Below are positions 12,287 to 44,543 of a stretch of 44,860 nt of DNA, in pieces. The position numbers were made by a program, and so were the translations under genes. The stretch comes from Macrostomum lignano (lineage: Eukaryota). The stretch's first letter is position 1; each line of letters starts with the position of its first letter. The stretch covers positions 1 through 44,860 of the forward strand of contig NIVC01004469.1 in the NCBI GenBank assembly GCA_002269645.1. Reading direction: 5' to 3'. The notes beneath the pieces are model-generated. The model was not told the origin of the DNA. It did not search any database and saw nothing but the letters and a program-made list of their open reading frames with translations.

Positions 12287-12659
12287 CTGTGTAGGTTGAT
12301 TTGAATGCTTCATTTGGAGCTAAACCTACACTTGACTTTATTGCATATTCATGACAATATTTTGATACAACATGAATTGTAATATGTTGTAAATGAAAAC
12401 CAATGCATAAAAAAATGTAACCTTTATCATCTTATTTATTAAAGACTATCTGCAAGAGTTGTTAGACTAAAAGATAATCATATAAATGCACATGCAAATT
12501 TTAGATAAAATATAATAGATATTCCCTAGAATAGTATATGATATAGTAATTTTTAATAATTATTTAAGATGTTCATAAATTCTCTATCATAGTTTAAAGA
12601 TAAAATACAAACTTTTTGTTGCATATTCCTTTAACTTAAAATAACTTGAAAACCTTATA

Positions 12660-23593: not shown

Positions 23594-24080
23594 AATCCAT
23601 AGGAATCTCCCGACGTTCAACTGGCGAGTTCTGTCTTCAACCGCCGGAGGGCAACCCTAGTGACGGTCTGGAGACCCGGATCAAGGAGCAGCAGTATTGC
23701 TACGACAATATCATTCGAGCCACCGGCTTCACCTGGGATGCTGACGTCACGGCGCCCCTGGGTCAGACGTCGACCCACCGGAAAAAGTACCCGCGCATCT
23801 CCCACCAGTTCGAATCGTCCGATGTGCCCGGGATTTTCTACGCCGGCACGATGACGCACGGCTTGGACTTTCGCGAGGCTGCCGGCGGTTTTATTCACGG
23901 ATTTCGCTACACGGCTCGAGCGTTGCATCGCTACTTGGAGAATCGTCGTCATGGAAACAAATGGCCGGGAACGCGGAGACCATTGATGGGTTTGATTGAC
24001 GCACTAGTGAAACGAATCAACGAAGGCTCTGGTACCTACCAGATGTTTTCCTTTCTCAGCGATATTGTTCTGGTGGACAA
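23594..24080 (+). CDS. FOXRED2: FOXRED2 exon 2 (acceptor ambiguous, 23594 or 23603)
   Basis: YDNIIRATGF, KKYPRI, AAGGFIHGFRYTARALHR and RINEGSGTYQMF. Donor AA|gtgagt. Confidence 0.88.
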
Positions 24081-24536
24081 GTGAGTTTAAATGCTTTAAT
24101 TATTACTATCAGTAGCGGAAGCCTCACCATAGCTTCTATGGTAGTATTGAAAAGGAGCGCACTGCTCGAGCCCCCTAAAAAGGTTGGCGAAACCGCATGT
24201 CACCTTCTGGCTTCAATAAAGTTTCGCGCGATTTACACCTATAGGATCGCGGTATCGCTGTACATCCTGCATACGACACCATTAAATCAGGTCATTTTTT
24301 TCAATACCACCCCCCCTTAGCAGAATTTTATCCGCGGGGTCTAAACAGAAATACTTTTTAGTTCTAATTTTATTGCTCGTTGGATCCTTACACTTTTGGA
24401 ATAGGATGGGAAGAGGAAAAGACAGGAGGTGCAGCTTCTGGAGAGAGGATCGGAAATACCCTGGCCCAGCGACCGCCCCGATGAGTAGACTAAACATCTG
24501 TTTTTTGCACTAAATTTATCAACTTTTTTAAAACAG

Positions 24537-24959: not shown

Positions 24960-25188
24960 TGTTAGTCTAGGAAAACTGAGTCAAGTCATGTTTGCAAGCG
25001 AAGGAGAATACCATTGAAAGATCTCTACCGAAGTGACGAAAGGTATTTATTTGACTACATAACACGAAACCACGTACATTGGTAGACAAACGCCATCCGA
25101 TTGGCTGGGGGTTAAAACCATGCACACTGGCAAGCACAAATGTACACAGGTAGGGGTAAAACGATAGCGCGCAAGAATTATCAGTCAC

Positions 25189-25222
<34 letters not shown>

Positions 25223-25260
25223 AGTGAAACAACATGAAAAACCAAAGTACAACCCCAACA
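24960..25260 (-). repeat. 3' LTR (301 bp, (GA)15)
   Basis: TGTTAGTC...CCCCAACA. The PPT-like TTTTGGGGGAAGCAG abuts it on the minus strand, and it contains AATAAA on the minus strand. Confidence 0.95.
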
Positions 25261-25312
25261 CTGCTTCCCCCAAAAGCAGCAAAACAAAAACAAAAGAAAC
25301 CAAGACCTGTCC

Positions 25313-28300
25313 TTAGACCTTATAACAAACAGGTTTACGAGGCCGCAAATCATACGAGCTTTGGGGCTGGAGAGTCTCATCTCCAGAACTCAGCGGGGAG
25401 TCACAGTCAGTCACCTCAGGTTCACGCAGCTCCGAGTCAGAGCCAGCCTTGGCACCCTGAATCGATAGCCCAGCCTGATCCTCGGATCCAGCCGCCTCGG
25501 TCAGCCGCCGATCGGCCTCCGCCTCCGGGCGGCAGCTCCATTGGTTTGCGTGCGCCATCCGCAGTCCACCGTCTGGTAGGTCAGCTGAGGTCACCAGAGC
25601 TGTGTTCCGGCCGTGCTGCACGATGAACTTGGCCGGAACCGGAGCCGTGCCAGGCCGAGCCCTCAGCCAGATGGAGTCACCCACCTGCTCGGTCATCGTC
25701 AGCGGATGGCGCAGCCGGCGTCCCCACATGAGAATGTCCGGCGAGCTGGAACGATTCCCGCTAGGCCTGCTGGTGCGAATGGTTAGGAGCAATTTCTGCA
25801 GGAACTGGTCAAATGGGACCACTTTCGTCCACGTCTTCAGCCCGCCTTTGAGACTCCTCACCAACCGCTCAGCCTGCCCGTTCGATGCCGGATGGTACGG
25901 TGGGGTGTGCATCTCCTGGCAGCCGACACTGTTCAGCCACTGCGAGACTCTTTCCGACCTGAACTCGGGCGCATTATCCGACACTAGCGTCCGAGGCACT
26001 CCATTTCTGGCGAACACCGCTCTCAGCACTCTCAGCACACTGCCTGCAGACCTGTCTGGGACCTGGACAGCTTCTGGCCAACCCGAGTATGCATCAGACA
26101 GCAACAGTAGCAAGCCCACTCCTGGCACCTCACAGTGGTCCATGTGGACCCGGGACCACGGCTCGCTCTCGGATGGCCAGATGTCAATTTTCCGCTGAAC
26201 CACCGGCCGTCTTTCAGCGCACAGCTGACACCGCTCAACAAACTGACGGACATCGCGATCCAGTCCAGGCCACCAGAACTCCTTAGACACATGGGCCTTC
26301 GTATTTTCCGCGCTCGGGTGCACCTCATCATGCGCGGTCTCCAAAATGCGCCGCCAGAGAATGGTCGGAGGCACCACCCTGGTACCATGGATGACCAGCC
26401 CGTTCTCCACAGACAACGCTTCCCGACACGCTTTGTACGGCCGCTCCAGCTGAGAGACCTGACCCCACCGGCCTGTCCTGATTCTCTGCTGGAGTCTTTG
26501 AAGCAGTGAACACCGGGAAGTACTTTCTCTCAGCTCCTCCACGGTAACCAAGCCTCCGTCAGTGATCAACTCAGTCTGATGAACAGACTCCGTCTCAGGA
26601 TCGAGGTTTTCAAAGCTCAGCCTTGATAGAGCGTCAGCATCCTGCATCTTCTTTCCCGGCACATATTCAATCTCGTAATCATAAGCCGATAGCCGCAGAG
26701 CCCACCGGGTTAGTCTGGCAGAAACAGTCTTTGGAAGATTCTTGCAAGGATTCAGAATAAACTTCAAAGGCTCGTGATCGGTCTGCAGAATGAATTTCCT
26801 CCCTAGCAACATTTTTCGAGCTCGTTCAACCGCCCAAACAATAGCCAGCGCTTCTCTCTCGATGTTTGAGTAGTTGGTTTCTGCCTGTGTGAGCGCCCTG
26901 GACATGAACATGACGGGATGTCCAGACTGGACCAGCACCGCGCCCAAGGATTTCTCGCTCGCATCAACTCGAAGACAGACAGGCGCGGAAACATCAAACG
27001 GCTTGATGCACGGGTTTGAGGCCAGACTCCTTTTGACCTCCGAAAATGCCGCCTCAGCCACCGCGTTCCATTCAAAGACCCGGTCACCGCGGCGAAGCTC
27101 CTGAAGAGGCCGACATTTCTCAGAAAAGTTTGGAACCAGCCGTCCATAAAATTGAGCCAGTCCTAGAAATCTCTCCAAATCTTTCTTGGTCTTCGGCACC
27201 TCGACATCCATCACACGTTTCACCATGCCCGGATCGGGTTTTATTCCTTCATCATCAATAATGTGACCAAGAAACTTCAGGCTGTTGGCTTCCATCACGC
27301 ACTTCGCCTCGTTGATCTTGACATTTGCGGCCTTTAACTTGTTGAGCACCTGCTCCCTAATTTTCTGCAACTCTGCCCGGCTCGCAGCACCGATCAGCAC
27401 ATCGTCCTGATATACTATGACACATGGATGGTCTCCCAGGAGCTTTTCCATCACACGTTGAAAAACAGATGGCGACACCTTAATGCCATACGGCAACCGG
27501 TTAAACCTGTAGCAACCAAACGGAGTGTTTATGGTGGTCACCGCTTTCGATTCCTCATCCAGGGGAACCTGATAGTACCAGGGGAACCCGATAGGTCCAA
27601 CCGACAGAACAGCTTCTTGTTGGCTATTTTCGAAAAGGCTGTCTCAATCGAGGGAGTGAGGAAGGTCTGGTCTTGAACCAACCGATTAACAGCCGAATAA
27701 TCTCCACAAATTCTCACGGATGCCCGATCTGACTTCACCGTCACCACAATTGGACTGCCCCATTCCGACGACATCACCTTCTCAACGATTCCAGCACTTT
27801 CCATCAGGTCCAGCTCCTTCTTAACCAAGTGCTTCAGCGCTAAGGGCAGTTCTCTGGCTGCCTGGAAAATTGGCCTAGCTCCAGCACAAAGACGGATTTC
27901 TCCCGTAGCACCAGATATTCCCAACAAGCTCTCATACCTGTTGCTGGCGGCTGACTCATCAGAACTGGCATGGTGCACCGGTGCGAGGACCAGCAGATTC
28001 CGGCCGAGCAGCCCAAACTCCTGTTGGCAGTCGATGACGGGCAGCTCTGCCGCCTTGAAGCGGCCGATGTTGCCAGTGGTCTCCACCAGGCATTCCAGAA
28101 CGCCCATCTGTCTCATAACGTGTCCGTCATACGCGAGCATGCGCGACTTCGCCGACTTCAGCGGGGGCCTTCCGAGCTCATTCCAGATCCTTCGTGAGAT
28201 TAACGAGCAGGAGGCACCGCTGTCCTTCTCCATCAGTACTTCTCTGTGATTGATTTTCACAGTGCAGAACTCGGCAGGCTTTCCTTCTCCACAGTAGAAA

Positions 28301-29220
28301 ACGGGCTCATCACGATAGGAGTCTTCTGGACTCAGCTGAGTGCCGACTGCTTCACCTGGGGCAGCGAAGTGGGTCCTGGCACCGCGGCACACACGGGCAA
28401 AGTGGCCAGCCTTTCCACATTGATTGCAGGTGGCTCTCAGGGCTCGGCAGTCAGCGGGCTTCTGGTGCGATCTCAACCCGCAACGCTGACAGCGCTGGTG
28501 TCCGAAGTTCTGCTTCTGCCTCATAACCGGATTAACGTTGACAGAGCCGGAGCTATCCGGATGGCAGTGAGCTTCATCAGCCGTAGTCAGACCCGCGGTC
28601 GACAGCGACCTAGCCTGGTGCACCACCGAATCCACGAGAGTCGAGTGAGCAGCAGCCTGGGACCCAGCTGAAAAGTTGCTGACCATCAGCAGCTGCTGAA
28701 CATATTCTGTGACCTGATCGACCGTCAGTTCTTGAGTCACTTCACGCTCGAGCACCTTGTTCCTGATGTTCGAGTTGGCCAGACCGGCAATGAGCCGCAT
28801 CTTGATGAGCGCTTCGGCGGGGTCCGCTCCTTCCTTTTTCAGGCTCTCGAACTCGCATACGACGGCTTGCTCCCTGAGACGAGCGGCATAGCTGGTGACG
28901 GTTTCGCCTTCGGCCTGGCGCATAGACATGAAGGCTGTCCTCTCAGCGATCTGCAGTTTCTTCTTGGGCTCCACAAACGCCAGTAGGCATTGCTTGATTT
29001 CAGACCATTTCATCGCAGACGGGGTTTTTGGAGCAACCAGCTGCTTGACTTTTATGAGCTCAGCGACCCCGAGGCAGCCCATGAAAGCGTCGGTCAGCGC
29101 TCGTCTCTCGTCGGTATCTTCGACTCCTTTGGATCTGGCCTGGGCGTCAAATACTTCAACCCAGGCGCGAAGCTCATCTATATTGCTCAACGGCAGCGTC
29201 TCTCTCAATTTGATGCTCAT
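25313..29220 (-). pseudogene. gag-pol copy 1, split by a +2 nt frameshift at about 27585 between PR and RT
   Basis: ORFs 27538-29220 and 25313-27541 match the two halves of the 1301-aa ORF. CCAGGGGAACCCG here versus CCAGGGAACCG in copy 2. Confidence 0.9.
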
Positions 29221-29242
29221 GATCCTGCTTGCGACGCAAAAA

Positions 29243-29541
29243 TGTTAGTCTAGGAAAACTGAGTCAAGTCATGTTTGCAAGCGAAGGAGAATACCATTGA
29301 AAGATCTCTACCGAAGTGACGAAAGGTATTTATTTGACTACATAACACGAAACCACGTACATTGGTAGACAAACGCCATCCGATTGGCTGGGGGTTAAAA
29401 CCATGCACACTGGCAAGCACAAATGTACACAGGTAGGGGTAAAACGATAGCGCGCAAGAATTATCAGTCACGGGAGAGAGAGAGAGAGAGAGAGAGAGAG
29501 ACAAGTGAAACAACATGAAAAACCAAAGTACAACCCCAACA
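29243..29541 (-). repeat. Shared middle LTR (299 bp, (GA)14)
   Basis: Same sequence as the outer LTRs. PPT on one side, PBS on the other. Confidence 0.95.
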
Positions 29542-29593
29542 CTGCTTCCCCCAAAAGCAGCAAAACAAAAACAAAAGAAACCAAGACCTGTCC

Positions 29594-32500
29594 TTAGACC
29601 TTATAACAAACAGGTTTACGAGGCCGCAAATCATACGAGCTTTGGGGCTGGAGAGTCTCATCTCCAGAACTCAGCGGGGAGTCACAGTCAGTCACCTCAG
29701 GTTCACGCAGCTCCGAGTCAGAGCCAGCCTTGGCACCCTGAATCGATAGCCCAGCCTGATCCTCGGATCCAGCCGCCTCGGTCAGCCGCCGATCGGCCTC
29801 CGCCTCCGGGCGGCAGCTCCATTGGTTTGCGTGCGCCATCCGCAGTCCACCGTCTGGTAGGTCAGCTGAGGTCACCAGAGCTGTGTTCCGGCCGTGCTGC
29901 ACGATGAACTTGGCCGGAACCGGAGCCGTGCCAGGCCGAGCCCTCAGCCAGATGGAGTCACCCACCTGCTCGGTCATCGTCAGCGGATGGCGCAGCCGGC
30001 GTCCCCACATGAGAATGTCCGGCGAGCTGGAACGATTCCCGCTAGGCCTGCTGGTGCGAATGGTTAGGAGCAATTTCTGCAGGAACTGGTCAAATGGGAC
30101 CACTTTCGTCCACGTCTTCAGCCCGCCTTTGAGACTCCTCACCAACCGCTCAGCCTGCCCGTTCGATGCCGGATGGTACGGTGGGGTGTGCATCTCCTGG
30201 CAGCCGACACTGTTCAGCCACTGCGAGACTCTTTCCGACCTGAACTCGGGCGCATTATCCGACACTAGCGTCCGAGGCACTCCATTTCTGGCGAACACCG
30301 CTCTCAGCACTCTCAGCACACTGCCTGCAGACCTGTCTGGGACCTGGACAGCTTCTGGCCAACCCGAGTATGCATCAGACAGCAACAGTAGCAAGCCCAC
30401 TCCTGGCACCTCACAGTGGTCCATGTGGACCCGGGACCACGGCTCGCTCTCGGATGGCCAGATGTCAATTTTCCGCTGAACCACCGGCCGTCTTTCAGCG
30501 CACAGCTGACACCGCTCAACAAACTGACGGACATCGCGATCCAGTCCAGGCCACCAGAACTCCTTAGACACATGGGCCTTCGTATTTTCCGCGCTCGGGT
30601 GCACCTCATCATGCGCGGTCTCCAAAATGCGCCGCCAGAGAATGGTCGGAGGCACCACCCTGGTACCATGGATGACCAGCCCGTTCTCCACAGACAACGC
30701 TTCCCGACACGCTTTGTACGGCCGCTCCAGCTGAGAGACCTGACCCCACCGGCCTGTCCTGATTCTCTGCTGGAGTCTTTGAAGCAGTGAACACCGGGAA
30801 GTACTTTCTCTCAGCTCCTCCACGGTAACCAAGCCTCCGTCAGTGATCAACTCAGTCTGATGAACAGACTCCGTCTCAGGATCGAGGTTTTCAAAGCTCA
30901 GCCTTGATAGAGCGTCAGCATCCTGCATCTTCTTTCCCGGCACATATTCAATCTCGTAATCATAAGCCGATAGCCGCAGAGCCCACCGGGTTAGTCTGGC
31001 AGAAACAGTCTTTGGAAGATTCTTGCAAGGATTCAGAATAAACTTCAAAGGCTCGTGATCGGTCTGCAGAATGAATTTCCTCCCTAGCAACATTTTTCGA
31101 GCTCGTTCAACCGCCCAAACAATAGCCAGCGCTTCTCTCTCGATGTTTGAGTAGTTGGTTTCTGCCTGTGTGAGCGCCCTGGACATGAACATGACGGGAT
31201 GTCCAGACTGGACCAGCACCGCGCCCAAGGATTTCTCGCTCGCATCAACTCGAAGACAGACAGGCGCGGAAACATCAAACGGCTTGATGCACGGGTTTGA
31301 GGCCAGACTCCTTTTGACCTCCGAAAATGCCGCCTCAGCCACCGCGTTCCATTCAAAGACCCGGTCACCGCGGCGAAGCTCCTGAAGAGGCCGACATTTC
31401 TCAGAAAAGTTTGGAACCAGCCGTCCATAAAATTGAGCCAGTCCTAGAAATCTCTCCAAATCTTTCTTGGTCTTCGGCACCTCGACATCCATCACACGTT
31501 TCACCATGCCCGGATCGGGTTTTATTCCTTCATCATCAATAATGTGACCAAGAAACTTCAGGCTGTTGGCTTCCATCACGCACTTCGCCTCGTTGATCTT
31601 GACATTTGCGGCCTTTAACTTGTTGAGCACCTGCTCCCTAATTTTCTGCAACTCTGCCCGGCTCGCAGCACCGATCAGCACATCGTCCTGATATACTATG
31701 ACACATGGATGGTCTCCCAGGAGCTTTTCCATCACACGTTGAAAAACAGATGGCGACACCTTAATGCCATACGGCAACCGGTTAAACCTGTAGCAACCAA
31801 ACGGAGTGTTTATGGTGGTCACCGCTTTCGATTCCTCATCCAGGGGAACCTGATAGTACCAGGGAACCGATAGGTCCAACCGACAGAACAGCTTCTTGTT
31901 GGCTATTTTCGAAAAGGCTGTCTCAATCGAGGGAGTGAGGAAGGTCTGGTCTTGAACCAACCGATTAACAGCCGAATAATCTCCACAAATTCTCACGGAT
32001 GCCCGATCTGACTTCACCGTCACCACAATTGGACTGCCCCATTCCGACGACATCACCTTCTCAACGATTCCAGCACTTTCCATCAGGTCCAGCTCCTTCT
32101 TAACCAAGTGCTTCAGCGCTAAGGGCAGTTCTCTGGCTGCCTGGAAAATTGGCCTAGCTCCAGCACAAAGACGGATTTCTCCCGTAGCACCAGATATTCC
32201 CAACAAGCTCTCATACCTGTTGCTGGCGGCTGACTCATCAGAACTGGCATGGTGCACCGGTGCGAGGACCAGCAGATTCCGGCCGAGCAGCCCAAACTCC
32301 TGTTGGCAGTCGATGACGGGCAGCTCTGCCGCCTTGAAGCGGCCGATGTTGCCAGTGGTCTCCACCAGGCATTCCAGAACGCCCATCTGTCTCATAACGT
32401 GTCCGTCATACGCGAGCATGCGCGACTTCGCCGACTTCAGCGGGGGCCTTCCGAGCTCATTCCAGATCCTTCGTGAGATTAACGAGCAGGAGGCACCGCT

Positions 32501-33499
32501 GTCCTTCTCCATCAGTACTTCTCTGTGATTGATTTTCACAGTGCAGAACTCGGCAGGCTTTCCTTCTCCACAGTAGAAAACGGGCTCATCACGATAGGAG
32601 TCTTCTGGACTCAGCTGAGTGCCGACTGCTTCACCTGGGGCAGCGAAGTGGGTCCTGGCACCGCGGCACACACGGGCAAAGTGGCCAGCCTTTCCACATT
32701 GATTGCAGGTGGCTCTCAGGGCTCGGCAGTCAGCGGGCTTCTGGTGCGATCTCAACCCGCAACGCTGACAGCGCTGGTGTCCGAAGTTCTGCTTCTGCCT
32801 CATAACCGGATTAACGTTGACAGAGCCGGAGCTATCCGGATGGCAGTGAGCTTCATCAGCCGTAGTCAGACCCGCGGTCGACAGCGACCTAGCCTGGTGC
32901 ACCACCGAATCCACGAGAGTCGAGTGAGCAGCAGCCTGGGACCCAGCTGAAAAGTTGCTGACCATCAGCAGCTGCTGAACATATTCTGTGACCTGATCGA
33001 CCGTCAGTTCTTGAGTCACTTCACGCTCGAGCACCTTGTTCCTGATGTTCGAGTTGGCCAGACCGGCAATGAGCCGCATCTTGATGAGCGCTTCGGCGGG
33101 GTCCGCTCCTTCCTTTTTCAGGCTCTCGAACTCGCATACGACGGCTTGCTCCCTGAGACGAGCGGCATAGCTGGTGACGGTTTCGCCTTCGGCCTGGCGC
33201 ATAGACATGAAGGCTGTCCTCTCAGCGATCTGCAGTTTCTTCTTGGGCTCCACAAACGCCAGTAGGCATTGCTTGATTTCAGACCATTTCATCGCAGACG
33301 GGGTTTTTGGAGCAACCAGCTGCTTGACTTTTATGAGCTCAGCGACCCCGAGGCAGCCCATGAAAGCGTCGGTCAGCGCTCGTCTCTCGTCGGTATCTTC
33401 GACTCCTTTGGATCTGGCCTGGGCGTCAAATACTTCAACCCAGGCGCGAAGCTCATCTATGTTGCTCAACGGCAGCGTCTCTCTCAATTTGATGCTCAT
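29594..33499 (-). CDS. Intact Gag-Pol polyprotein, 1301 aa (Gag with zinc knuckles, PR, RT, RNase H, IN)
   Basis: CNQCGKAGHFARVC knuckle; PR DSGA; RT YQDD; RNase H DAS..NYSNIEREALA; integrase zinc finger (H..H..C..C) and D-D-E (HMD, SDNAPEF, AER). Confidence 0.97.
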   Translation of the reverse strand: MSIKLRETLPLSNIDELRAWVEVFDAQARSKGVEDTDERRALTDAFMGCLGVAELIKVKQLVAPKTPSAMKWSEIKQCLLAFVEPKKKLQIAERTAFMSMRQAEGETVTSYAARLREQAVVCEFESLKKEGADPAEALIKMRLIAGLANSNIRNKVLEREVTQELTVDQVTEYVQQLLMVSNFSAGSQAAAHSTLVDSVVHQARSLSTAGLTTADEAHCHPDSSGSVNVNPVMRQKQNFGHQRCQRCGLRSHQKPADCRALRATCNQCGKAGHFARVCRGARTHFAAPGEAVGTQLSPEDSYRDEPVFYCGEGKPAEFCTVKINHREVLMEKDSGASCSLISRRIWNELGRPPLKSAKSRMLAYDGHVMRQMGVLECLVETTGNIGRFKAAELPVIDCQQEFGLLGRNLLVLAPVHHASSDESAASNRYESLLGISGATGEIRLCAGARPIFQAARELPLALKHLVKKELDLMESAGIVEKVMSSEWGSPIVVTVKSDRASVRICGDYSAVNRLVQDQTFLTPSIETAFSKIANKKLFCRLDLSVPWYYQVPLDEESKAVTTINTPFGCYRFNRLPYGIKVSPSVFQRVMEKLLGDHPCVIVYQDDVLIGAASRAELQKIREQVLNKLKAANVKINEAKCVMEANSLKFLGHIIDDEGIKPDPGMVKRVMDVEVPKTKKDLERFLGLAQFYGRLVPNFSEKCRPLQELRRGDRVFEWNAVAEAAFSEVKRSLASNPCIKPFDVSAPVCLRVDASEKSLGAVLVQSGHPVMFMSRALTQAETNYSNIEREALAIVWAVERARKMLLGRKFILQTDHEPLKFILNPCKNLPKTVSARLTRWALRLSAYDYEIEYVPGKKMQDADALSRLSFENLDPETESVHQTELITDGGLVTVEELRESTSRCSLLQRLQQRIRTGRWGQVSQLERPYKACREALSVENGLVIHGTRVVPPTILWRRILETAHDEVHPSAENTKAHVSKEFWWPGLDRDVRQFVERCQLCAERRPVVQRKIDIWPSESEPWSRVHMDHCEVPGVGLLLLLSDAYSGWPEAVQVPDRSAGSVLRVLRAVFARNGVPRTLVSDNAPEFRSERVSQWLNSVGCQEMHTPPYHPASNGQAERLVRSLKGGLKTWTKVVPFDQFLQKLLLTIRTSRPSGNRSSSPDILMWGRRLRHPLTMTEQVGDSIWLRARPGTAPVPAKFIVQHGRNTALVTSADLPDGGLRMAHANQWSCRPEAEADRRLTEAAGSEDQAGLSIQGAKAGSDSELREPEVTDCDSPLSSGDETLQPQSSYDLRPRKPVCYKV

Positions 33500-33518
33500 G
33501 ATCCTGCTTGCGACGCCA
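33500..33518 (-). promoter_or_regulatory. Primer-binding site TGGCGTCGCAAGCAGGAT
   Basis: Starts with TGG a few nt inside the 5' LTR boundary. Its complement ATCCTGCTTGCGACGCCA resembles a tRNA-Ser-type 3' end (inference). Confidence 0.75.
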
Positions 33519-33521
33519 AAA

Positions 33522-33750
33522 TGTTAGTCTAGGAAAACTGAGTCAAGTCATGTTTGCAAGCGAAGGAGAATACCATTGAAAGATCTCTACCGAAGTGACG
33601 AAAGGTATTTATTTGACTACATAACACGAAACCACGTACATTGGTAGACAAACGCCATCCGATTGGCTGGGGGTTAAAACCATGCACACTGGCAAGCACA
33701 AATGTACACAGGTAGGGGTAAAACGATAGCGCGCAAGAATTATCAGTCAC

Positions 33751-33784
<34 letters not shown>

Positions 33785-33822
33785 AGTGAAACAACATGAA
33801 AAACCAAAGTACAACCCCAACA
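33522..33822 (-). repeat. 5' LTR (301 bp, (GA)15)
   Basis: TG...CA, followed by the GACAG TSD. Confidence 0.95.
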
Positions 33823-34351: not shown

Positions 34352-35373
34352 TTGATCTCGCAAGCCACGAGTGTAATTTTATTCTCCAACTTGGTTTTCA
34401 TTTGAAGTTGAAAGCCAATATTAGTCTTTAAAGGCACAGACCCTATCAGAACATAGAAGCACTTCGTTTTAATTTTTTAAACTGGTGTGGGATCAATATT
34501 TACCTTCGTCTCATATTTACTTATTTTATTAGTATTATATTGCGATACATATCATATTTGCAAATTTGACTTAAACTCAATCAGTAATTACACTCATACC
34601 TTTCAATATAAGAAAAAATAAATCAGGATCACTCTAAAACATTTCTCAAAACTGAATTCTTGACTTACTGGTTGACCTGGAACTGCGCTTAAATGAAATG
34701 TATAGTTATTTTTGACAAGACACATTTTCTCTAGTATGCATAAAAAAGATTATTTTAATCACGATGAAGGTCACAGATAGTGTTATTATGCATCTTTGCG
34801 CAATTAATAAAAATGGAAAAACCGCGGAATTTCCACGGTTTTTGGACCAACTATATTGCTGATAAAGTACTAGCTATCTAAAGAACGCATATAATTATGG
34901 AAGTTTTATTAGCTCCTTGTTTTAGGTAGCTAAGTATGTGACTTCAAGAATAAAATTAGACTTGAAACTCATCAAACTGAACTTTCGTGCGTAATGTCTA
35001 AATATACTTTTACAGTACATTCAGCCTTATAAATAAGTAGTATACGTTTTTTTGACACAAAGCCGATTTCCTTATGGCGAAATACATAGTAAGTACAGGC
35101 CCAAAAAAATGGCAGAGTCCGAAATTTGCCGTGCACGCAAACTAGCTTTTACGCAATGAATTAACCAATTAGCTGAATCACTTTTACGCAAACACCTGTC
35201 TATCCACCTAAATTCTATCCGCAATGAATGCTGCTAATTACAAGCCCAACCAAAATTCAATTTGACACAAAGCTTATTTCGCGTATAACTTAACGCATTT
35301 AAATTCTTCTTTTCAAGCAGTATTGTATATTTCAACTAGATACAAACACAATTTGACGCACAAATTAGCGAGT

Positions 35374-35936
35374 TTACAAATATTGAGGCAGCACTCGTAA
35401 AACAAAATTGCGTAATTTAGCATACAAGTATCGAAACGAACCAGTGCGAATTATATTCCGTTTAAAAACGCTTCGAATAAAACACTCTAGGTTTCCTCTG
35501 GTAGTCAACTTATGAAAAATATAAAAAATTACCCAAAATCCACAACTTCCACTCTGTGGGTCTTGGATAGCAAAGCGACTATAACACCAATTTTTCGAAT
35601 TTCCACATTCTTTTCCTAGCCATTTTGCTATTCTTGGCAATGGTACTAGACCAAGAGAATCAAAATATTCACCAAGTCGTTTGCTACCGCGACCTGCTCG
35701 ATGACCATAAACCCAAACGCATACCCAATGTTTTCCGGGCAGGTTGGAGACGTCAGTATTAACGATAAAAAATAGTTTTTACCGTCTAAAGGTAAGCGTC
35801 TAAGTCCACCAACAAAGTTTTGAGGAAAAACACCAAGAAATACAACATTTAAAAAATGTGCGCACAATTTCGATACAACATTGCGAAGGAAGCGATCTGT
35901 TACACCACGATCTAGGATAGAATCAATTACTTCCAT
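35374..35936 (-). CDS. Adenain-like cysteine maturation protease (one frameshift at about 35770)
   Basis: Adding one T to the T6 run gives FLGVFP..YFFIVNTDVSNLPGKHWVCVW..EYFDSLG..IQDPQSGSCGFW, with the His/Asp/Gln/Cys catalytic motifs. Confidence 0.9.
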
Positions 35937-37248
35937 ACTGTGCCAGGAACAATGTCGCGAAGTTCAGTAAGTTGCAGTTGCTTGTCAAATATACCTCCAA
36001 ATATGACGTTGTACACGGTACTAGTTGCAGCATTGAAGCGTAACTCTAGTTTTACATTTCCTTCCTTATACAGTTGCACTCCCCGTCCGACACCAGGTTC
36101 ACTTCCAAGACTGAATGCAAAAATTGAGTAACCATTGGCGTAATCCAGCATATTAAATCCAATATCTCGTCCCTGTAGATAGATTCCAAGCTGTTGTAGC
36201 AAAAAATTATACTCTGTCACACAATCATCTCCAAAGTTTGTCTGCAGCGGACGCGATGGTACCGAGTCTCCATTCACAAACACACCAATGCTGCTCACAT
36301 TTGCATGCTCAAAGTTGAACGGATTTGTGTCCATGCTTCCATTGAATGCCTTGTTGCTTACGATTGCCATCAATAAAAGCCGTGGTACCCCACTAGGAAA
36401 CAAATTTTCATGCGTATGGCTAGACGATCCTCGGGTATAGTAAACGTACCAAGGCTTAGACTTCGGTGCGGATATAATGCATTGTGACTTTTAAGTCCAT
36501 GAGCATGTGCACTGATAACACTCGGCGAGGGTTGAACAAACCGCAATCGTAGTTCTGCACGCAAAAACTTGATCTCATAGTCTTTTAAAACCGCACCAGC
36601 TTCTAATTTTGACCCGCTCAGGACAAATTTACTTTTTGCCGGTATGAGCTTGATCCGTAGTGGTGTCTTTGATAGTAGATACCGAGGCTGACGAAACAAA
36701 TCCAAGAATAACGGCCCCGATACAGTGCACCGCCTATTGTTAGCAATGAGCGCCTGCCTCTTTGTTCGTCCATCGTTTTCACTTGTTGCATTCATTTTAC
36801 CAGCTGTATCCTTGTAAAACCCCCACGGCAGTAAACCAGCCTTCTGAGCTGTATGTCCATATTCCAGTAATGTAAGAAGCATAGCCTTGTATGGATACAT
36901 AAAACTACCACCTTCAACTACAGTATCGCCAATAGTAAATTGAACGTCCTCAAACAATGTTCCAATAACCAAATTATTCAAACAAACAAAATTTTTCGTT
37001 GCATCTATAGGTTCACCTTCACTATCACTAACGCTGAAGCATACCGTGAGCACAGTTTCTTGTAGATCCAAATACAAATCGCCTGCAGGCACAACTTCAA
37101 ATTCGATAGGTGATCCTTTTGTAATACCATGTTGCGGTTGAATGTTAGTATATCGATTATCCAAAACACTAAACTGAACAGGACTTTGATCAAATAGCGA
37201 CAATTCACTTTTAAGAGCAGCAATATCAGGTCCAAGCAAATGATTCAT
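35927..37248 (-). CDS. Double jelly-roll major capsid protein (PY/hexon-like; one frameshift at about 36430)
   Basis: KSELSLF..PIEF..YLDLQET..YPYKAML..WGFYKDTAG..LFLDLFRQPRYL, then with one extra G ENLFPSGVPR..AFNGSMDTNPFNF..GYSIFAF..VKLELRF. Confidence 0.9.
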
Positions 37249-37249
37249 G

Positions 37250-37741
37250 CTACTTTTCAAACAGACTAAAAATTTTCTTGCTTGCAGTAGCAGTTCGACG
37301 TTTTCCTATACCACCGGTCTTCTTGCGTTTTCTTTTGTTCACGCGTCCCTTTCCACACTGTCTTGTTCGTCGTTTCTTTTGCCGTTTCTTCTTTCCTAAG
37401 CTTATAGCCACTCCACTGGTTCTTTTCCTTCGCTTTGGTCTCGAAACTGCAGTTGTATTAAACATCTCTTCGCTCGATTCTGTGTCCAAGTGACGCTTCC
37501 GACCCATACCAATTTTTGCTGTCGCACTTTTCAAATACTCCAGACCACGATCCAAGAAATCTTTCTTTGCGTTGCGTAGTACAGGATACACCAATCTGTC
37601 CGCCAAATTTGACAAAAAACCGTAACCTTCGTAAACAGGAATGCCATATCCACCTCCACCTTCAGCAGATCTATTCGGACCAGAATAAAAAGCAAAAATA
37701 GGATCCATTTCAACAGTCTTCTCTTCGTCATGCAATCCCAA
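37250..37741 (-). CDS. Basic K/R-rich core-like protein with a GxG motif (pVII-like, inferred)
   Basis: GGGGYGIPVYEGYGFLSNL plus an Arg/Lys-rich C-terminal half. It lies between INT and MCP. Confidence 0.7.
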   Translation of the reverse strand: MGLHDEEKTVEMDPIFAFYSGPNRSAEGGGGYGIPVYEGYGFLSNLADRLVYPVLRNAKKDFLDRGLEYLKSATAKIGMGRKRHLDTESSEEMFNTTAVSRPKRRKRTSGVAISLGKKKRQKKRRTRQCGKGRVNKRKRKKTGGIGKRRTATASKKIFSLFEK

Positions 37742-37749
37742 TTCATGTG

Positions 37750-38910
37750 TTACTTATACACTTTAGAAAATAGTTTAGCAGTCTTTGCGTCAAGATCATT
37801 TTCGTTTAACCACTGACTTCTTGAGATTGGCATACCTTTCCATTTTACTAGATACAGACGACTTCGATTTTTCGCTCGATCAGTTTCAATAACTTTTTCA
37901 ATTTCATTAGGTGTTTCATCTGTCTCGTTTACCAACATTAGTTCCGCTTGGTTAAACCTTCCTTTCAGCACTTCAAATCCATCTTCAGGGTCCACTAATT
38001 CGTACATTGGCGGGTCTGTCAAGTGTACACGATGAATGCGATATTTTGAATTACTCCAAGTCGTAGTGTATCCTTTTTCAAATGTTCCTCGACGTCGTGT
38101 AATTCTAACCCAATCACCAACTTTAAATTTATTCTCATTCTTTTTAGTGTACGACTTCGCAAACATTTTGTCCCACAAAATTCCTTGTAAATGCGGGTCT
38201 GTCTCTACCCGTTTTGGTGTTTCTCCACTCAAGGATCGATGAGGACTAGAGTTGAAATTATCTTCCAATTGCGGTAAAATGTCAAACCATCGAGGTAAAT
38301 TTTTTGCTCGAAAGTATCGTAATAGACGTTCCTTTAACGAGCGGATAAATCGTTCAGCCATGCTTGCCTTGTAATTGCTTTGGCTAACAAAAAATCGAAC
38401 TCCTTCCTGTTTCAGCATTTGACGTGTAGCTCTTCCGAGAAACTCCATACCAGCATCACCTTGTAAATAAACAGGCTTAAAACCACTTCGAAAAATCTCT
38501 AGTAATACTTGACTAACTTCTGAAGGCTTCTTTGTACGCAATGGTCTTAGTCGTACAACTCTAGTAAAACAGTCGATAAGAACAAGTATGTAACGATAAC
38601 CTCGATTTTCCGTCTTGTATTGAGGTAAATCTGCCAAATCGATTTGAAACTGAAACTTTGCAACTGGTGGCACACTAATTTTTGGAGTTGGAAAGTTTCG
38701 TCGTGTTTTTCGAAATAAATGATGCTCATTTGTTGATCGCACCCAATTATCAACTTCGCGCTTTGCAACTTTGTTCGTAATCTGTGGAAACTTTTTACGT
38801 ACTTCACGAACAAGTATAATCTTGTTACCACTAAATGAAGTAGGCCTGTTCAAGTTAAAAAAAGCATCCGTCAAAAATTCTTCAATTTCCTTACGCACTC
38901 GCTTCATCAT
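37750..38910 (-). CDS. Retroviral-like (rve) integrase with C-terminal chromodomain
   Basis: QIDLAD, LIDCFTR, QGDAGMEF and AERFIRSLK. C-terminal IEKVI..YLVKWKG..SQWL. Confidence 0.95.
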   Translation of the reverse strand: MMKRVRKEIEEFLTDAFFNLNRPTSFSGNKIILVREVRKKFPQITNKVAKREVDNWVRSTNEHHLFRKTRRNFPTPKISVPPVAKFQFQIDLADLPQYKTENRGYRYILVLIDCFTRVVRLRPLRTKKPSEVSQVLLEIFRSGFKPVYLQGDAGMEFLGRATRQMLKQEGVRFFVSQSNYKASMAERFIRSLKERLLRYFRAKNLPRWFDILPQLEDNFNSSPHRSLSGETPKRVETDPHLQGILWDKMFAKSYTKKNENKFKVGDWVRITRRRGTFEKGYTTTWSNSKYRIHRVHLTDPPMYELVDPEDGFEVLKGRFNQAELMLVNETDETPNEIEKVIETDRAKNRSRLYLVKWKGMPISRSQWLNENDLDAKTAKLFSKVYK

Positions 38911-39079
38911 CAGTTAGATTGATGCTAGTCGTTTGACAGTTGCAACAAAAGAACGAAGCCTCGATCGAATCTCCGTCAGTATCCTCGTTGTGCTCCTTTC
39001 CCAGAAACGGCACACATTCAGATTTTATGCAAAAAAACTCACAGAGACGAATCAAAAGTTTTTGGAAGATAGATGACAT
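38891..39079 (-). CDS. Small hypothetical Cys-containing protein (62 aa) overlapping the integrase start
   Basis: ATG start, co-oriented, fills the gap in a tightly packed gene array. Confidence 0.45.
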   Translation of the reverse strand: MSSIFQKLLIRLCEFFCIKSECVPFLGKEHNEDTDGDSIEASFFCCNCQTTSINLTDDEASA

Positions 39080-39191
39080 GGTTTGTCTTATTAAACTATA
39101 TATTTTTCATAAACAAAAAATTAACCTTTTTAAAAAGCTTATAGTGCTCGAATCAATTTTGTTAAAACGTAATCTGTAATTTTAAAACAAC

Positions 39192-39881
39192 TTAATTCAG
39201 TGTTTGATAATTTTCAAACAGACTAAGATCCTCCTTTGCAACAGTTTTTGGAGCAGACATTAGCTCGTTTCGTACATGACGCCCGATTTGGTTTGCTGCG
39301 ATTCCACGTTTTCGAAGAAAGTCTAAAAATGTTTTTAGTCCACTAGGCGGTTGAGTCTCGTGTCGCTTAAGCGGTCTGTCTCGAACAACATATTCCATGA
39401 GATCTTGTATCTCGGCATCAGTCAAATTAGCCAGCATTGGTTCTGCATTCTTGTCCATGTCCGAAAATAGGTTTTGAGCGAGAGCTTCGAAACGTGGTAA
39501 AAAAACTTTAGGAATTTCCCTTGATTCGCTGGCATATGAACTTCTTACAGTAGTCCCTTTGCGAACAAGTGACAGATTGTCCTCGTCTCCAGTGCGATAG
39601 ACTTTGCGCAATTTTAAAAGTTTGTCTTCCAATCTGCTTCGTTTCAATTGAGCTGTGTAATTTGGCTCCTTTTCCATTTCCTTGTCCAAGTTATCCATTT
39701 GGTCTCTCATTTCCACCATATTTTTTGCCAGAGCATCTTGCGGTGCGTCTAAAACTTCAGTTTTTCGAGGTGTCTCAGCAGTTGGTGACGATCCTTGCTC
39801 TGCACCTTGACATGCAGATTGATACACAGATTCAGGTACTAGATACATTCGTTGAAAACTACTACTCTCGTTAGTTCGCAT
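39192..39881 (-). CDS. Hypothetical Maverick protein, 229 aa (MYLVP motif, predicted helical)
   Basis: ATG-initiated, co-oriented and abutting both neighbours. Confidence 0.7.
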   Translation of the reverse strand: MRTNESSSFQRMYLVPESVYQSACQGAEQGSSPTAETPRKTEVLDAPQDALAKNMVEMRDQMDNLDKEMEKEPNYTAQLKRSRLEDKLLKLRKVYRTGDEDNLSLVRKGTTVRSSYASESREIPKVFLPRFEALAQNLFSDMDKNAEPMLANLTDAEIQDLMEYVVRDRPLKRHETQPPSGLKTFLDFLRKRGIAANQIGRHVRNELMSAPKTVAKEDLSLFENYQTLN

Positions 39882-39891
39882 TATATTCCTA

Positions 39892-40320
39892 CTACTTTCG
39901 TTGAATTGATCGTATTAAATTCGCTGCTCCCGCGGCGGTACCAACTACTCCAGACGTTATCCCAAGCGCAGTGCTTATAGCAGGTAGAGCGGCAATAATT
40001 GGAGCCAAAAAAGGTAAAAATCCTCCGTGTTGGACAAGTATTTTCCTTTTTGCAGTAATTGGAGTCTTCTGTTCCAAAAGCTGGCGTATATATCTGCGAT
40101 GCTTCTCAAGTCGTCTTTTGTTACAGTTACTAATTTTAATACGTCCACTAATAATATTAAACAGAAAGTCTACTAGACATCGTATCTCCGACTCTGAAAG
40201 TGTTTGTAAAAAACTTTTTCTCTGCTTTGGATGCTTTAGCCGATAAACAATTTGTAGTAAAAAAGCACACTGACACAATGAGCGAGCATTTTGTTTTCCT
40301 TTTTCTGTTAGTTCGCTCAT
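39892..40320 (-). CDS. Adenovirus pX/mu-like basic core protein
   Basis: Basic helical body, then QHGGFLPFLAPIIAALPAI, resembling adenoviral pX GGILPLLIPLIAAAIGAVP. Confidence 0.75.
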   Translation of the reverse strand: MSELTEKGKQNARSLCQCAFLLQIVYRLKHPKQRKSFLQTLSESEIRCLVDFLFNIISGRIKISNCNKRRLEKHRRYIRQLLEQKTPITAKRKILVQHGGFLPFLAPIIAALPAISTALGITSGVVGTAAGAANLIRSIQRK

Positions 40321-40376
40321 TCTTACAAAACAAATTCACAAAATTTTCTATTACACAATTAATCTTTGCTTATAAA

Positions 40377-41381
40377 TTAGTCCGACCTATGTTTAAAATG
40401 CAGTACGACAACAACGTGTGCTCCCGGATCAAAATTAAACGGTTTTCCGCGCTGGTCCGATAGTCGAATCGAAATCTCGTGAATTTGTTGTCGATTTGTT
40501 TTCAAGTAGTAGGGTGTTTGCAATGCACTGCTATCGCGTATAAGTTCTCCGTTTTTCTTTTGTTGGAGTTCCACAACTCGAAGCAACGGTACTGATGTAC
40601 TTCCCACTGCTTGATACTCGATTATATCTGTGTAACAGTACATGTAAACCGTTTTACTAGGCATCGGAGAAGGTAGCACAGCATCCAAGTAGGTTTTGTT
40701 AATGCGCCAAACACGATTTCTCAACCAATATTGGTGTACTTTGATGTACACTTCTCCTTCCGTTTTTCGAAGATAGTCTCCATGCGAAACAAGTCGTATA
40801 GCTTCACCAGGCGATAGAACACAATAAAAAACATAATAGTTCTCAGGTACTAGCGCTAGAGTATTGTCGAGACTTTTTATCAAATCCAAGTATGAACCAT
40901 CCGGTGGTTGTACACTACCAGCGGCAGGTTTTGATAATTTTTCCGAGACAAGTCCAGAAAGTTTCTTCCAAGAGTCAAATTTGAAAGCGTCCATAAATGT
41001 AACTGGTAGTTCTAATCCAATAGTTTTTTCGCCTGAATTTCGTAAAAGCCAGGCAAATTTTTCATCTGTACCAGACGGTTGCCAGGAAACGTAAGCATCC
41101 AAGTCTGCCTCTGCCCAAACACGACCCCAATAGTTTTTCTTTAATCGTATTATTGAGTCAATGTCCGCAAAATATGGAACTTCAAATCGACGCTCACGAT
41201 GAGCATTTGGCGTCGTAATTGCTCCATGGCACAGTAATTCAACTAGTGCAACCTCGAAGAATCCGTTCAATAAATTTATTGGTTCAGTTAGTCGCACTCG
41301 AAATTCATTAGGCGAGTTGGTTTCGTAACTGATATCGTTTGACGGCAAAAAAACGTAAAAACTCATTTTGAAATAAAACAC
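40377..41381 (-). CDS. Minor capsid protein (penton, PX)
   Basis: FYVFLPSN..N..F...L..PI.L..FEVALVEL at the N-terminus; YCYTDII..VG..PLLRVV..PYY..ISIRLSDQRG..VVLHF at the C-terminus. Confidence 0.88.
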   Translation of the reverse strand: MFYFKMSFYVFLPSNDISYETNSPNEFRVRLTEPINLLNGFFEVALVELLCHGAITTPNAHRERRFEVPYFADIDSIIRLKKNYWGRVWAEADLDAYVSWQPSGTDEKFAWLLRNSGEKTIGLELPVTFMDAFKFDSWKKLSGLVSEKLSKPAAGSVQPPDGSYLDLIKSLDNTLALVPENYYVFYCVLSPGEAIRLVSHGDYLRKTEGEVYIKVHQYWLRNRVWRINKTYLDAVLPSPMPSKTVYMYCYTDIIEYQAVGSTSVPLLRVVELQQKKNGELIRDSSALQTPYYLKTNRQQIHEISIRLSDQRGKPFNFDPGAHVVVVLHFKHRSD

Positions 41382-41423: not shown

Positions 41424-42113
41424 TTACACAAACTTTGCATCACATTCACGAGTATAGACAACTTGTTCATCACCAGAAAATATTCCTGTTCTCAATCGTA
41501 AAAAATCTGGTGTCACTTGCCGCAGGTCAATGAATAAATATGAAAAAGGTTTGTTATTTGTTGCGTCTTCATACACATTCACTAGAAACCTACTATTACG
41601 CGGATACATTTGTCGACCGAGATGTTCAACTGTGGTTCGATCGCGCACACTACGAGTTAGACAAATATAACTAGCTGATAAACTTCGCATGCGTGCTTCT
41701 GGATCAGACTTGTTAAAAAGACCTTGACAAAGGTACAGACAAGTCAAAGGGATATGATGCGCATGCTTTGTAAACATACTAGTAAATTCTGGCAACTTAG
41801 CAATCTCGCTTTGCAAGTCGTCAACAACAACCAAATCGTGTGGTAAAAAACGATTAATCATCTGTGGTGTGAATTCGGGTACAAAAACAATAGGGTCAAG
41901 ACCGCTTTTTTGCCAGCATGTTCTAATTCGTTGTTGATCGTCTGGTTTCAAACTTGATCCATGGCACCAAACAAGACGGCACGGTTTTTTATCAAATAAT
42001 TCTTTTCGTTCAGTCAACAAACGCAACGTCCATTCAGTTTTACCCGAGTTTGAAGGTCCAGCAATAATAAATGTAGAATCGTGAGCTAGTTGCATATTGT
42101 ATGGCTGCTGCAT
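41424..42113 (-). CDS. A32/FtsK-like DNA packaging ATPase
   Basis: Walker A GPSNSGKT, Walker B VVVDDLQ, FTKHAHH and YLFIDL. Confidence 0.93.
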   Translation of the reverse strand: MQQPYNMQLAHDSTFIIAGPSNSGKTEWTLRLLTERKELFDKKPCRLVWCHGSSLKPDDQQRIRTCWQKSGLDPIVFVPEFTPQMINRFLPHDLVVVDDLQSEIAKLPEFTSMFTKHAHHIPLTCLYLCQGLFNKSDPEARMRSLSASYICLTRSVRDRTTVEHLGRQMYPRNSRFLVNVYEDATNNKPFSYLFIDLRQVTPDFLRLRTGIFSGDEQVVYTRECDAKFV

Positions 42114-42115
42114 TT

Positions 42116-42534
42116 TCAAGCACCAAAGCGTTGCTTAACTTGCATAACCTTGGTAACCAACTTCGCAGCTAGTTTTTCTTTCCAACCAGTAGACGGATCG
42201 TGGGCAATCTCTCGTGCACCAGATTCTAATAGCTTATCAGCTTTTAACCTCTCTTGCACGTCAGAATTTTTATCATAGGCCACGTCGTGAAGCATGCACA
42301 AATTGTCAAGCCGATTAATTCCTCGTTGTCCTTTTGCTAGCCTAGCTTGCAGTTGCGTACCTGGACCACAAAACTGATATCCGCCGGGTAAATGTGCTTC
42401 AAATGGTAAATGATTAATTAACCAATTTACGACACCATAACCTTGTTGCTTTTTATTAATCTTTCTAATAGATTTCTTCTTTTACGAATGCTCTTCTTTT
42501 TCTTTTTAAAACCTCGATCTTTCGCTGGAGACAT
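42116..42534 (-). CDS. Parvovirus-VP1u-type phospholipase A2 with a Lys-rich N-terminus (one frameshift at about 42482)
   Basis: HLPGGYQFCGPGT (Ca-binding loop) and GINRLDNLCMLHDVAYD (catalytic HD and downstream D). The ORF track shows only the last 61 aa. Confidence 0.88.
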
Positions 42535-42649
42535 TTTTACAACATATATTTTAGGCATAAATTTTTAAAATTGCTTATAGTATTTACAAAGCTCTCGCAT
42601 AGTGCACCAATCACCAAAGAAAAAAATCAGTTTATTATTATTATTATAC

Positions 42650-43132
42650 TTATTGGCCAGTGCTGCCAAAGCCGCCAAAGCCGCGCCGCTTGGTCGGCGG
42701 CTCAATCATCCGAATCGAATTGTCTGCTTCAGTCACATAGACTGAAGCAAGCACGGCCTGCTCCAGAACCAGTTGTGCAATACTGAGCCCGGCATAGTAC
42801 TCAAAGTCTTCCGGACTGTAATTAAACAAGACTATACAGATTTCACCAGTATAGTCGGGGTCGATTACGCCACCGCCAACAAATAAGCTGTGCAGAGCCA
42901 TGCTGGAACGTCCCGCTATCCTGCCATAGGTACCAGGCGGTAAGCGAATTTTGAGTCCGGTTCGCACACTCCGGGACTCGTAGGCCGGAATGGTACCATC
43001 GACGCCAGCGCAAAGATCATACCCGATCGACCCGACAGTTTTTCGGGTCGGAATCGTTGCCGAATCGTATAGACGTTCAACTAAAAGCTTACGATCAGTT
43101 AGTTGTTGTTGCTGCTGCTGCTCGGGATTCAT
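42650..43132 (-). CDS. dut: Trimeric dUTPase
   Basis: All five motifs are present: GYDL, GRIAGRSS, GVIDPDYTGEI, IAQLV and RGFGGFGSTG. Confidence 0.95.
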   Translation of the reverse strand: MNPEQQQQQQLTDRKLLVERLYDSATIPTRKTVGSIGYDLCAGVDGTIPAYESRSVRTGLKIRLPPGTYGRIAGRSSMALHSLFVGGGVIDPDYTGEICIVLFNYSPEDFEYYAGLSIAQLVLEQAVLASVYVTEADNSIRMIEPPTKRRGFGGFGSTGQ

Positions 43133-43427: not shown

Positions 43428-44543
43428 TTAATTAGCCAAGTGCCAGTGTCCAAAGGGTAGCGAATTAATTGAACTTGTCCAGGATCGCTTCGTATCGAAG
43501 AAGCTTAGTGCAAGTTTTCTTTGTTGCATCAAAAAAAACTTTCTGTTTTCGAGAACGAATGGACTGTATGCGCGAAAACACAAGTTGTCGCTTGTGTAAG
43601 ACTCTTAAATAGTCTTGATGCTTTAAACTGCTCTGTGCGGCTTTAGAAGCAGTACTGCCCAGCTTTGCGACCGATTGAGACTGGAACTTTAAACGATTGC
43701 TGCTTAACCAGACCGGACCGGACTGGACCGGACCGGACTGGACCGGACTCCCCGCCCGCCGCCGCCGCCGCGCCGCCGCCACCACCACCACCACCACCGC
43801 CGCCACACACCACCACGCCGCCACCACCACCACTGCCGCCGCCCGCCCCACACCACCGTGGGACGTATTTGTTGACAGTGTGCTTGCATGGCTTTTGCGA
43901 TAAACGCAGAGCATCAGTCTAGCTGCTCGATTGCTCTATATTGCCAATTACTACCTCGAGATTGAAAATTGCAATTTATTAACAACTGATTAATAACGCG
44001 TGCGAACCAGTCATTGTAGGCCTCGGGAGATAACAGCATGTCACTGTTTGCAATCGTCTCATCAAATGATATTGTCGCAATGTTGGTATTAAAATAGACC
44101 GAAATGATCTCTTCGCTGCTCGAGCCATCGTTGTCGTCTGCTGCTGTTTTCGGTCGAAATAGTGTCACTTTCAAGTGAAAGCAGACTCTTATTAATAAAC
44201 TGGGTGAGCCAATTTTTTCCAATATTTTAAATATGGTTCTCTAAAGACGCAATCAACTCGCCAGGAAGTAACTCGCCAGAGCTGTTGCCTTGTTCAAGAG
44301 TGGGAGTAAATTCGACAAAATTTACCCGACCACGATGAGCTGACTCGCGCAAAGCGATGGACCACCCATCTGGTGGGTTTTCGTCAGGTTTTGCAGCGAT
44401 CCGGTCAGTAATCGTTGCGGTGAAAAACAAGCACCATGCGAGTGAGCATGCAGCTCGGCTTGATTACTGAACTTTTTTCTGCAGATTTGGCATTGTGCAC
44501 GCGGCATTTGTGCACCTAGCTCGACAACGAGCGTATCGAGCAT
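43428..44543 (-). pseudogene. Protein-primed DNA polymerase B remnant: N-terminus and C-terminus only
   Basis: N-part: C2H2 finger CQIC..HAH and FQSRGSNWQYRAIEQL. C-part: LKHQDYLRVL..IRSRKQKV..KLALSFFDTKR..SLPFGHW. Several frameshifts; no exonuclease or polymerase motifs in between. Confidence 0.78.
43705..43862. repeat. GC-rich low-complexity tract: (GACCG/GACTG)n followed by (CCG)n/(CCA)n
   Basis: Directly visible. Confidence 0.9.

Follow-up and report, generated by a model that had tools for sequence, protein, structure and literature searches.

A probable short-form phospholipase A2 gene without a pX tail, and proposed entry factor, in a multi-copy Polinton/Maverick family of Macrostomum lignano

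The window analyzed in this study, i.e., the whole stretch of 44,860 nucleotides of contig NIVC01004469.1 (Macrostomum lignano, GCA_002269645.1), contains an element of the Polinton/Maverick (adintovirus) type, the features of which are listed in Table 1. All of its genes are on the minus strand and follow one another in the order dUTPase, phospholipase A2 (PLA2), ATPase, penton, core gene with a pX motif, ORF at the PZ place, integrase, basic core gene, capsid, and protease; beyond the protease lies an element end with AGTAGT at 35036. This is the one end found in a test for the Maverick criterion of terminal inverted repeats with (AGT)2 or (AG)3 ends and a target duplication of 6 bp, and the other end lies outside the window. 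PMC8097293 reports ends of the AGTAGT type, and a comparable set of genes, in vertebrate Mavericks.

Table 1. Features of the element in the window. Residue counts are among 153 relatives of the PLA2, the conservation of which is partly circular (see text).
Feature	Position	Strand	Remarks
PLA2 domain frame	42116..42481	-	121 aa stop to stop; terminates right behind the enzyme domain, without pX tail
Short basic frame	42427..42534	-	35 aa from ATG 42534 in the window, other phase; likely 5' end of the PLA2 gene
Frame break in the window's copy of the PLA2 gene	~42479..42484	-	run contigs differ here
Calcium-binding loop, residues 35-41	42359..42379	-	G39 in 152/153, G41 in 147/153
Catalytic HDxxY, residues 65-69	42275..42289	-	H65 in 153/153, D66 in 152/153, Y69 in 151/153
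AD pair with second catalytic Asp, residues 81-82	42236..42241	-	A81 in 153/153, D82 in 152/153
GxG motif before the first, amphipathic helix	42434..42442	-	candidate maturation-protease site
TATAAGCA box	42572..42579	-	45 bases before ATG 42534
dUTPase	42650..43132	-	upstream of PLA2; PF00692, E 1.6e-29
Packaging ATPase	41424..42113	-	profile of 7 related-locus ATPases, E 1.2e-6
Probable penton (minor capsid protein)	40377..41366	-	profile of 5 related-locus pentons, E 6.5e-5
Core protein ending in pX motif	39892..40320 (ORF 39892-40335)	-	PF05829, E 2.5e-6; putatively PM/GasderminX-like, by position
229-aa ORF at PZ place	39192..39881	-	by position only; gene order of PMC8097293
rve integrase with chromodomain	37750..38910	-	PF00665, E 4.7e-8; PF00385, E 1.7e-6
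Basic GxG-rich core protein at PW/Cupiennin place	37250..37708	-	putative name, from gene order
Major capsid protein	35927..37248	-	broken near 36430 in the window; jelly-roll fold
Cysteine protease (adenain-like)	35374..35936	-	broken near 35766 in the window; tblastn
Element end, AGTAGT start	35036..35139	.	probable terminal inverted repeat, ~104 bases
Probable polymerase remnant	43437..44240	-	far shorter than whole PolB

The PLA2 frame has no ATG upstream of its HD motif. A Lys/Arg-rich frame from ATG 42534 overlaps it in a different phase, and the KKKSIR stretch that an initial annotation of this DNA had described as repeated is indeed found in both frames; the peptides quoted there likewise all fall in the minus-strand frame 42116-42481. 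The single-letter run at the break is four long in the window and not the A5 run that had been named. The gene looks hidden because this copy, or this assembly, has a frame break. It was right to call it a PLA2 gene, but the gene is no rarity: it belongs to a described class with 1,382 relatives at E ≤ 0.001 (phmmer, 1.84 billion representatives). Six of the eight nearest relatives have basic leaders at least 19 residues long, and 5-11 of the last 35 residues are K/R.

Assignment to the parvovirus type is based on the profile match that had been proposed as a check: PF08398 (Pfam) matches the frame with E 2.5e-9 and 37.7 bits, above the curated cutoff of 23.9, over profile positions 4-70 of 80. 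The combined pattern of loop, HDxxY, and AD occurs once in the window and in none of 100 shuffles. HDXXY, a YXGXG calcium loop, and a second Asp define the parvoviral PLA2 motif, and in VP1u of parvovirus B19 mutation of the H, the D, or loop residues abolishes activity, as described in PMC3626588. Residues H65, D66, Y69, and D82 agree with the HD..D motif of the initial annotation; its YxGxG loop, on the other hand, reads FxGxG in the window, with a Tyr two residues earlier. Among 153 relatives (the best 150 of the 1,382 plus three from another search, picked by likeness to the query, so that conservation is partly circular), 76 have Y and 72 have F in the aromatic column of the loop, and the columns of the GxG site hold G14 in 129 and G16 in 133. 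A GxG at this candidate site was found in 92 of 115 relatives, compared with 147 of 970 background windows, and the first helix behind it has a helix moment of 0.50. Four relatives (P0009, P0022, P0041, and P0144) have two matched PLA2 stretches in one protein.

The predicted fold points in the same direction. An AlphaFold model (86 sequences) has a mean pLDDT of 84.7 and five helices, and the best matches of an Atlas search with the PLA2 were PF08398 clusters. The best PDB fold match in both programs was rice PLA2, a weak one (E 0.4; Z 7.4 versus 7.0 for an unrelated helical chain), and among the viral fold matches were a PLA2-like protein of an entomopoxvirus (E 3.6e-4) and numerous parvoviral VP1 proteins, including densovirus ones; a PDB sequence search with the frame gave no match at E ≤ 1. 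Judged from the sequence, the frame 42116-42481 is very probably a parvovirus-type PLA2, and the gene very probably reads through in its family.

Sequencing runs bear directly on the break. The region is present in 20 of 24 listed runs, from eight studies, with a best word share of 0.97, and two differing sites predict a word loss of 2.9%, near that of this share. Contigs were aligned from four of the 20 runs, representing four studies (one run may be the source of the window), and compared with the window up to 43500. In each of the four, the contigs that span the PLA2 break depart from the window there and read through, at full covering depth; the capsid and protease breaks are read through in all four as well. 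Together with the TATAAG box that PLA2 shares with other structural genes, this supports the link of the PLA2 frame to ATG 42534 made in the initial annotation. No listed contig has the window's form at the break, including those of a run with 211 contigs that retains other minority variants. The PLA2 break is therefore not family-wide but either an error of the assembly or confined to this copy. Among the differences listed, no length difference touches the PLA2 stop, and the sole variant shown in the PLA2 frame, present in one run, falls on a third codon position and, as a single site, is uninformative on selection.

The same contigs indicate that the element is repeated in the genome. In all four runs loose ends occur near 35036, where the flanks vary, and at 35139, where a single sequence is common to them; the variety of flanks in each run at about 35036 suggests several insertion sites. 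Differing flanks are the better sign of several insertions than depth: element/flank depth ratios of about 10-14 in three runs are not copy numbers, and in run X9, possibly an RNA run, the flank is deeper than the element. Further loose ends, in three of the four runs, lie at 41335-41367 near the start of the penton gene; they suggest that some copies, or another element, have only that short stretch in common.

Is the copy in the window misassembled, or a true relic? It is a possibility to be taken seriously, if a tentative one, that the window holds a real decaying copy, in which case the breaks are private to a dead insertion, other copies are unbroken, and the identity of the gene is unchanged. 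Contigs lose rare variants, and a truly broken single copy would fit this. Among the differences listed, at least nine single-letter ones, besides at least seven length ones, are common to all four runs inside the element; in addition, the polymerase region looks deleted, and 96% of vertebrate Maverick loci are degraded according to PMC8097293. On the other side stands the lack of the window's break form in any listed contig, even in the run with 211 contigs, and the fact that four of the seven listed length differences touch single-letter runs of at least four, which make up 12.5% of positions; this pattern fits long-read error, and natural slippage too. It is very improbable that programmed frameshifting or splicing connects the two frames, or that the enzyme frame has a non-ATG start, the window being correct and functional. 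Their overlap in an A-rich stretch would allow it, but the sequence itself reads through in four of four runs, no joint at the PLA2 break is among those listed in the run contigs, and the capsid and protease breaks behave alike, so that the read-through contigs largely rule it out. Hardly credible at all is the chance arrival of a VP1u fragment from an endogenous parvovirus or densovirus, or of a host PLA2: the fold matches do include densovirus VP1, but no parvoviral capsid or NS1 family was found among the 30 ORFs scanned, and the best relatives in viral contigs (45-55% identity) are beside an integrase, ATPase, or protease in 11 of 11 loci (L011-L021), a gene context that rules this origin out.

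The adintovirus-type cassette that had been assumed around PLA2 was recovered in the form of integrase, ATPase, penton, and capsid-fold neighbors. Pfam recognized none of the capsid, penton, ATPase, and protease, and a PDB sequence search with the ATPase gave nothing relevant. The capsid has jelly-roll fold matches to 112 PDB chains at E ≤ 1e-3, a 442-aa relative covers both of its broken frames, and in nine of the 11 related loci (L011-L021) protease matches by tblastn directly follow the PLA2 gene. An Atlas search with the pX-bearing ORF gave leads only. PM and GasderminX are taken here to be the same protein, as are PW and Cupiennin, and the frame 43914-44240 presumably resembles the front part of PolB. 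A weak tblastn trace at 43437-43677 (E 6e-5, in a search of 1.7 kb) leads to the end of a related-locus polymerase; the region 43437-44240, which has low-complexity GGC/CCGGT sequence in its middle, seems to have suffered an internal deletion. The element belongs to a multi-copy Polinton/Maverick (adintovirus) family with a full virion module around PLA2.

The TATAAG sequence occurs eight times on the minus strand of the element, and four of the eight sit 45-54 bases ahead of an ATG, namely, those of PLA2 (42534), penton, the pX (PM-like) gene, and the basic core (PW-like) gene, the distance being 50-54 bases for the last three. The binomial tail for this spacing is 3e-4 for a range of 30-70 bases, or 1e-6 for a range chosen post hoc. 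The ATPase, the PZ-place ORF, the capsid, and the protease are without a box and follow closely behind upstream genes, e.g., the ATPase ATG comes two bases after the PLA2 stop; the dUTPase and integrase have no TATAAG at that place. The box, presumably a promoter, supports a start at ATG 42534 and a PLA2-ATPase unit among the structural genes. A literature search on Maverick promoters gave nothing relevant. A fifth TATAAG, at 39143, lies 64 bases before a cysteine-rich ORF of 55 aa (38912-39079, minus strand) that has an acidic middle and abuts the integrase start.

PLA2 in elements of this kind was first noted by Yutin et al. (2013; PMC3671162) and has been reported further in PMC5803895, PMC11296320, and 10.64898/2026.07.28.741253. 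As described by Starrett et al. (2021; PMC8502044), PLA2X is a PLA2 with a C-terminal pX and is characteristic of Alpha modules, while GasderminX and Cupiennin are found in Beta modules. The gene in the window resembles PLA2X as a parvovirus-VP1-like PLA2 in a Polinton virion module, with 45-55% identity in 11 viral contigs; unlike PLA2X, it ends after the enzyme, has the pX (PF05829) on a separate gene at 39892, and is accompanied by a fish-like capsid instead of an Alpha module. The C-terminal pX on the same protein, the defining trait of PLA2X, is absent. In the related loci the gene runs into the protease, whereas in the window element it runs into the ATPase. PLA2X and protease form one open frame in 2 of the 11 loci (L011, 3547-4578; L018, 9959-11023) and are separate in others. 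The reading of the initial annotation thus stands with respect to the adintovirus type of the cassette, but it overlooked the lack of the pX tail and a capsid class that is not typical for PLA2.

The tail is likewise missing from the eight nearest relatives, the tree support for this group being weak to moderate. Among the 153 relatives, 116 extend more than 50 residues further and 19 end within 10; all eight nearest relatives end at most two residues from the query's stop, and the long-tailed forms are their sisters. The tail-less group of nine (query plus eight) has a FastTree support of 0.89 and an IQ-TREE support of 52.7/60 (52 of 154 rows), and its inner four have 80.8/84 with IQ-TREE. 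The PLA2 ends where 119 of 134 extended relatives have a GxG (background, 147 of 970 windows). A profile of the pX gene and four relatives matches 24 of the 153 PLA2 relatives, mainly over the part with the pX motif, and none of the eight tail-less relatives.

The capsid is 33-34% identical to four fish (cichlid) proteins (BLASTP E 1e-38 to 1e-42), and BLASTP against five capsids of PLA2X loci gave no match at E ≤ 10, a profile link being distant. By sequence, and with the class resting on stand-in proteins, the capsid is therefore fish-like (Beta/group 1) and not Alpha (Mayetiola-class); fish elements appear in the Beta panel of Figure S2 of PMC8502044. The weak polymerase trace described above leads to a polymerase from a locus of the PLA2X type; an Alpha-type polymerase may thus be combined with a Beta-type capsid module. 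The vertebrate Mavericks of Group 1/Beta, as presented in PMC8097293 and PMC8502044, have in common with the window element the AGTAGT end, integrase, ATPase, two capsid proteins, protease, and ORFs at the PM, PZ, and PW places. The window element differs from them in carrying PLA2 and dUTPase, in having all genes on one strand, in the position of the penton between the ATPase and the PM-like gene, and, in this copy, in having only a polymerase remnant. Scans of viral contigs with PLA2, capsid, and relatives of both revealed no second genome with a tail-less PLA2 and a fish-like capsid, and ten metagenome loci, 1-2.5 kb long, were of the other type or degraded; the combination is thus shown for this element only. 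The open-licence literature, the figures and supplements of which may hold such a case, was found to describe no Beta/group 1 module with a tail-less PLA2, and the main texts of coral and nematode Polinton papers (PMC11131425, PMC10748475) contain no phospholipase.

Two other systems are informative for comparison. The 'CAP' protein of a Spodoptera frugiperda Maverick is, like the present one, encoded by a Maverick gene and has a PLA2 with conserved catalytic and calcium residues, and PMC5803895 argues that it is a true phospholipase; unlike the present one, it comes from an insect Maverick and carries the PLA2 N-terminally, and the likeness is by description only. Parvoviral VP1u PLA2 (group XIII; PF08398) has in common with it HDXXY, the calcium loop, the second Asp, and the same predicted fold. 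It is, however, an N-terminal extension of the capsid protein of an ssDNA virus, while here the enzyme is encoded by a separate small gene and the loop aromatic is F.

A possible history, put forward here tentatively, is that a Beta/group 1 Maverick took its PLA2 from an Alpha/group 2 PLA2X and dropped the pX tail at the point at which relatives have a GxG, its own core gene supplying the pX, and that the enzyme came under a structural-gene promoter ahead of the ATPase. If this is true, a multi-copy family with virion genes that read through in current samples carries both classes of proposed membrane-entry factors and provides a natural split-gene test of cell entry by non-enveloped animal Mavericks.

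Taken as a whole, the gene is probably a short PLA2 form, lacking the pX tail, that is carried by a multi-copy Polinton/Maverick (adintovirus) family, and a proposed entry factor. The protein is most likely a minor virion protein, and by analogy a role in virus entry is favored, with some reserve. PLA2 would be expressed together with the morphogenesis genes, and its basic leader may mediate nuclear import or DNA binding, through which it would be packaged. The element's protease may cleave at the GxG and so free the amphipathic helix and the enzyme, although the site lacks the M/I/L demanded by the adenain motif (MIL)XGXG (10.1101/341131). At entry, the calcium-dependent enzyme would attack the endosomal/lysosomal membrane, as parvoviral VP1u does, and the pX part of PLA2X would be supplied instead by the separate gene 39892-40320. 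That the PLA2 implies selection for infectious particles, as proposed in the initial annotation, is a reasonable conjecture. Adintovirus particles from insect cell lines are mentioned as unpublished work in PMC8502044.

An active enzyme need not be a virion entry factor, and it is conceivable, if unlikely, that it has an intracellular task, such as membrane remodelling or particle release, or is cargo of an element that mainly transposes. No phospholipase is among the eight conserved genes that PMC8097293 gives for intact vertebrate Mavericks, so that this capsid class can do without PLA2; besides, the protein lacks the pX tail, and a replication helper, dUTPase, adjoins it. Yet PLA2 has the TATAAG box and its spacing in common with the penton and core genes, and not with dUTPase and integrase; it abuts the packaging ATPase, and in 9 of 11 loci its relatives directly precede the protease. 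The preprint 10.64898/2026.06.19.733378 also describes phospholipase as common in group 2 and counts it as a capsid-associated gene.

The infectious spread of animal Mavericks is still argued largely from gene content, and PLA2 alone adds little to this because such genes are widespread and described. The domain family and the element type are known; the split arrangement was not found in the literature. A stand-alone PLA2 with a separate pX gene, in a capsid class without a known PLA2, would mean that the entry module can be split and swapped between classes. No enzyme assay of a Maverick PLA2 was found in the literature, and the small size of the domain makes a first one straightforward. What appears to be a PLA2 pseudogene is none at the family level; as four independent runs lack all three of the breaks in virion genes, calls of a 'dead element' from a single assembly can mislead.

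Lastly, some other features were observed. The basic core protein (37250-37708, minus strand) has several GxG, one of them before an amphipathic stretch that resembles the start of the PLA2 domain. Outside the element, an LTR retrotransposon (protease, RT, RNase H, and integrase) is present at 24960-33822 in two apparently tandem copies, which over 4.6 kb are 99.8% alike; a repeat of 299 bases recurs at 24960, 29243, and 33522, as if the middle LTR were common to both, and one copy has a frame of 1309 aa, the other being broken near 27540-27640. Host genes comprise a DEG/ENaC-family channel in one frame of 595 aa (17714-19501, minus strand), a flavin oxidoreductase in at least two pieces (21964-24084, plus strand), and a PACS C2-domain frame (11497-12309, minus strand). 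Positions 1-1500 consist of a degenerate tandem repeat with a strong GC skew.
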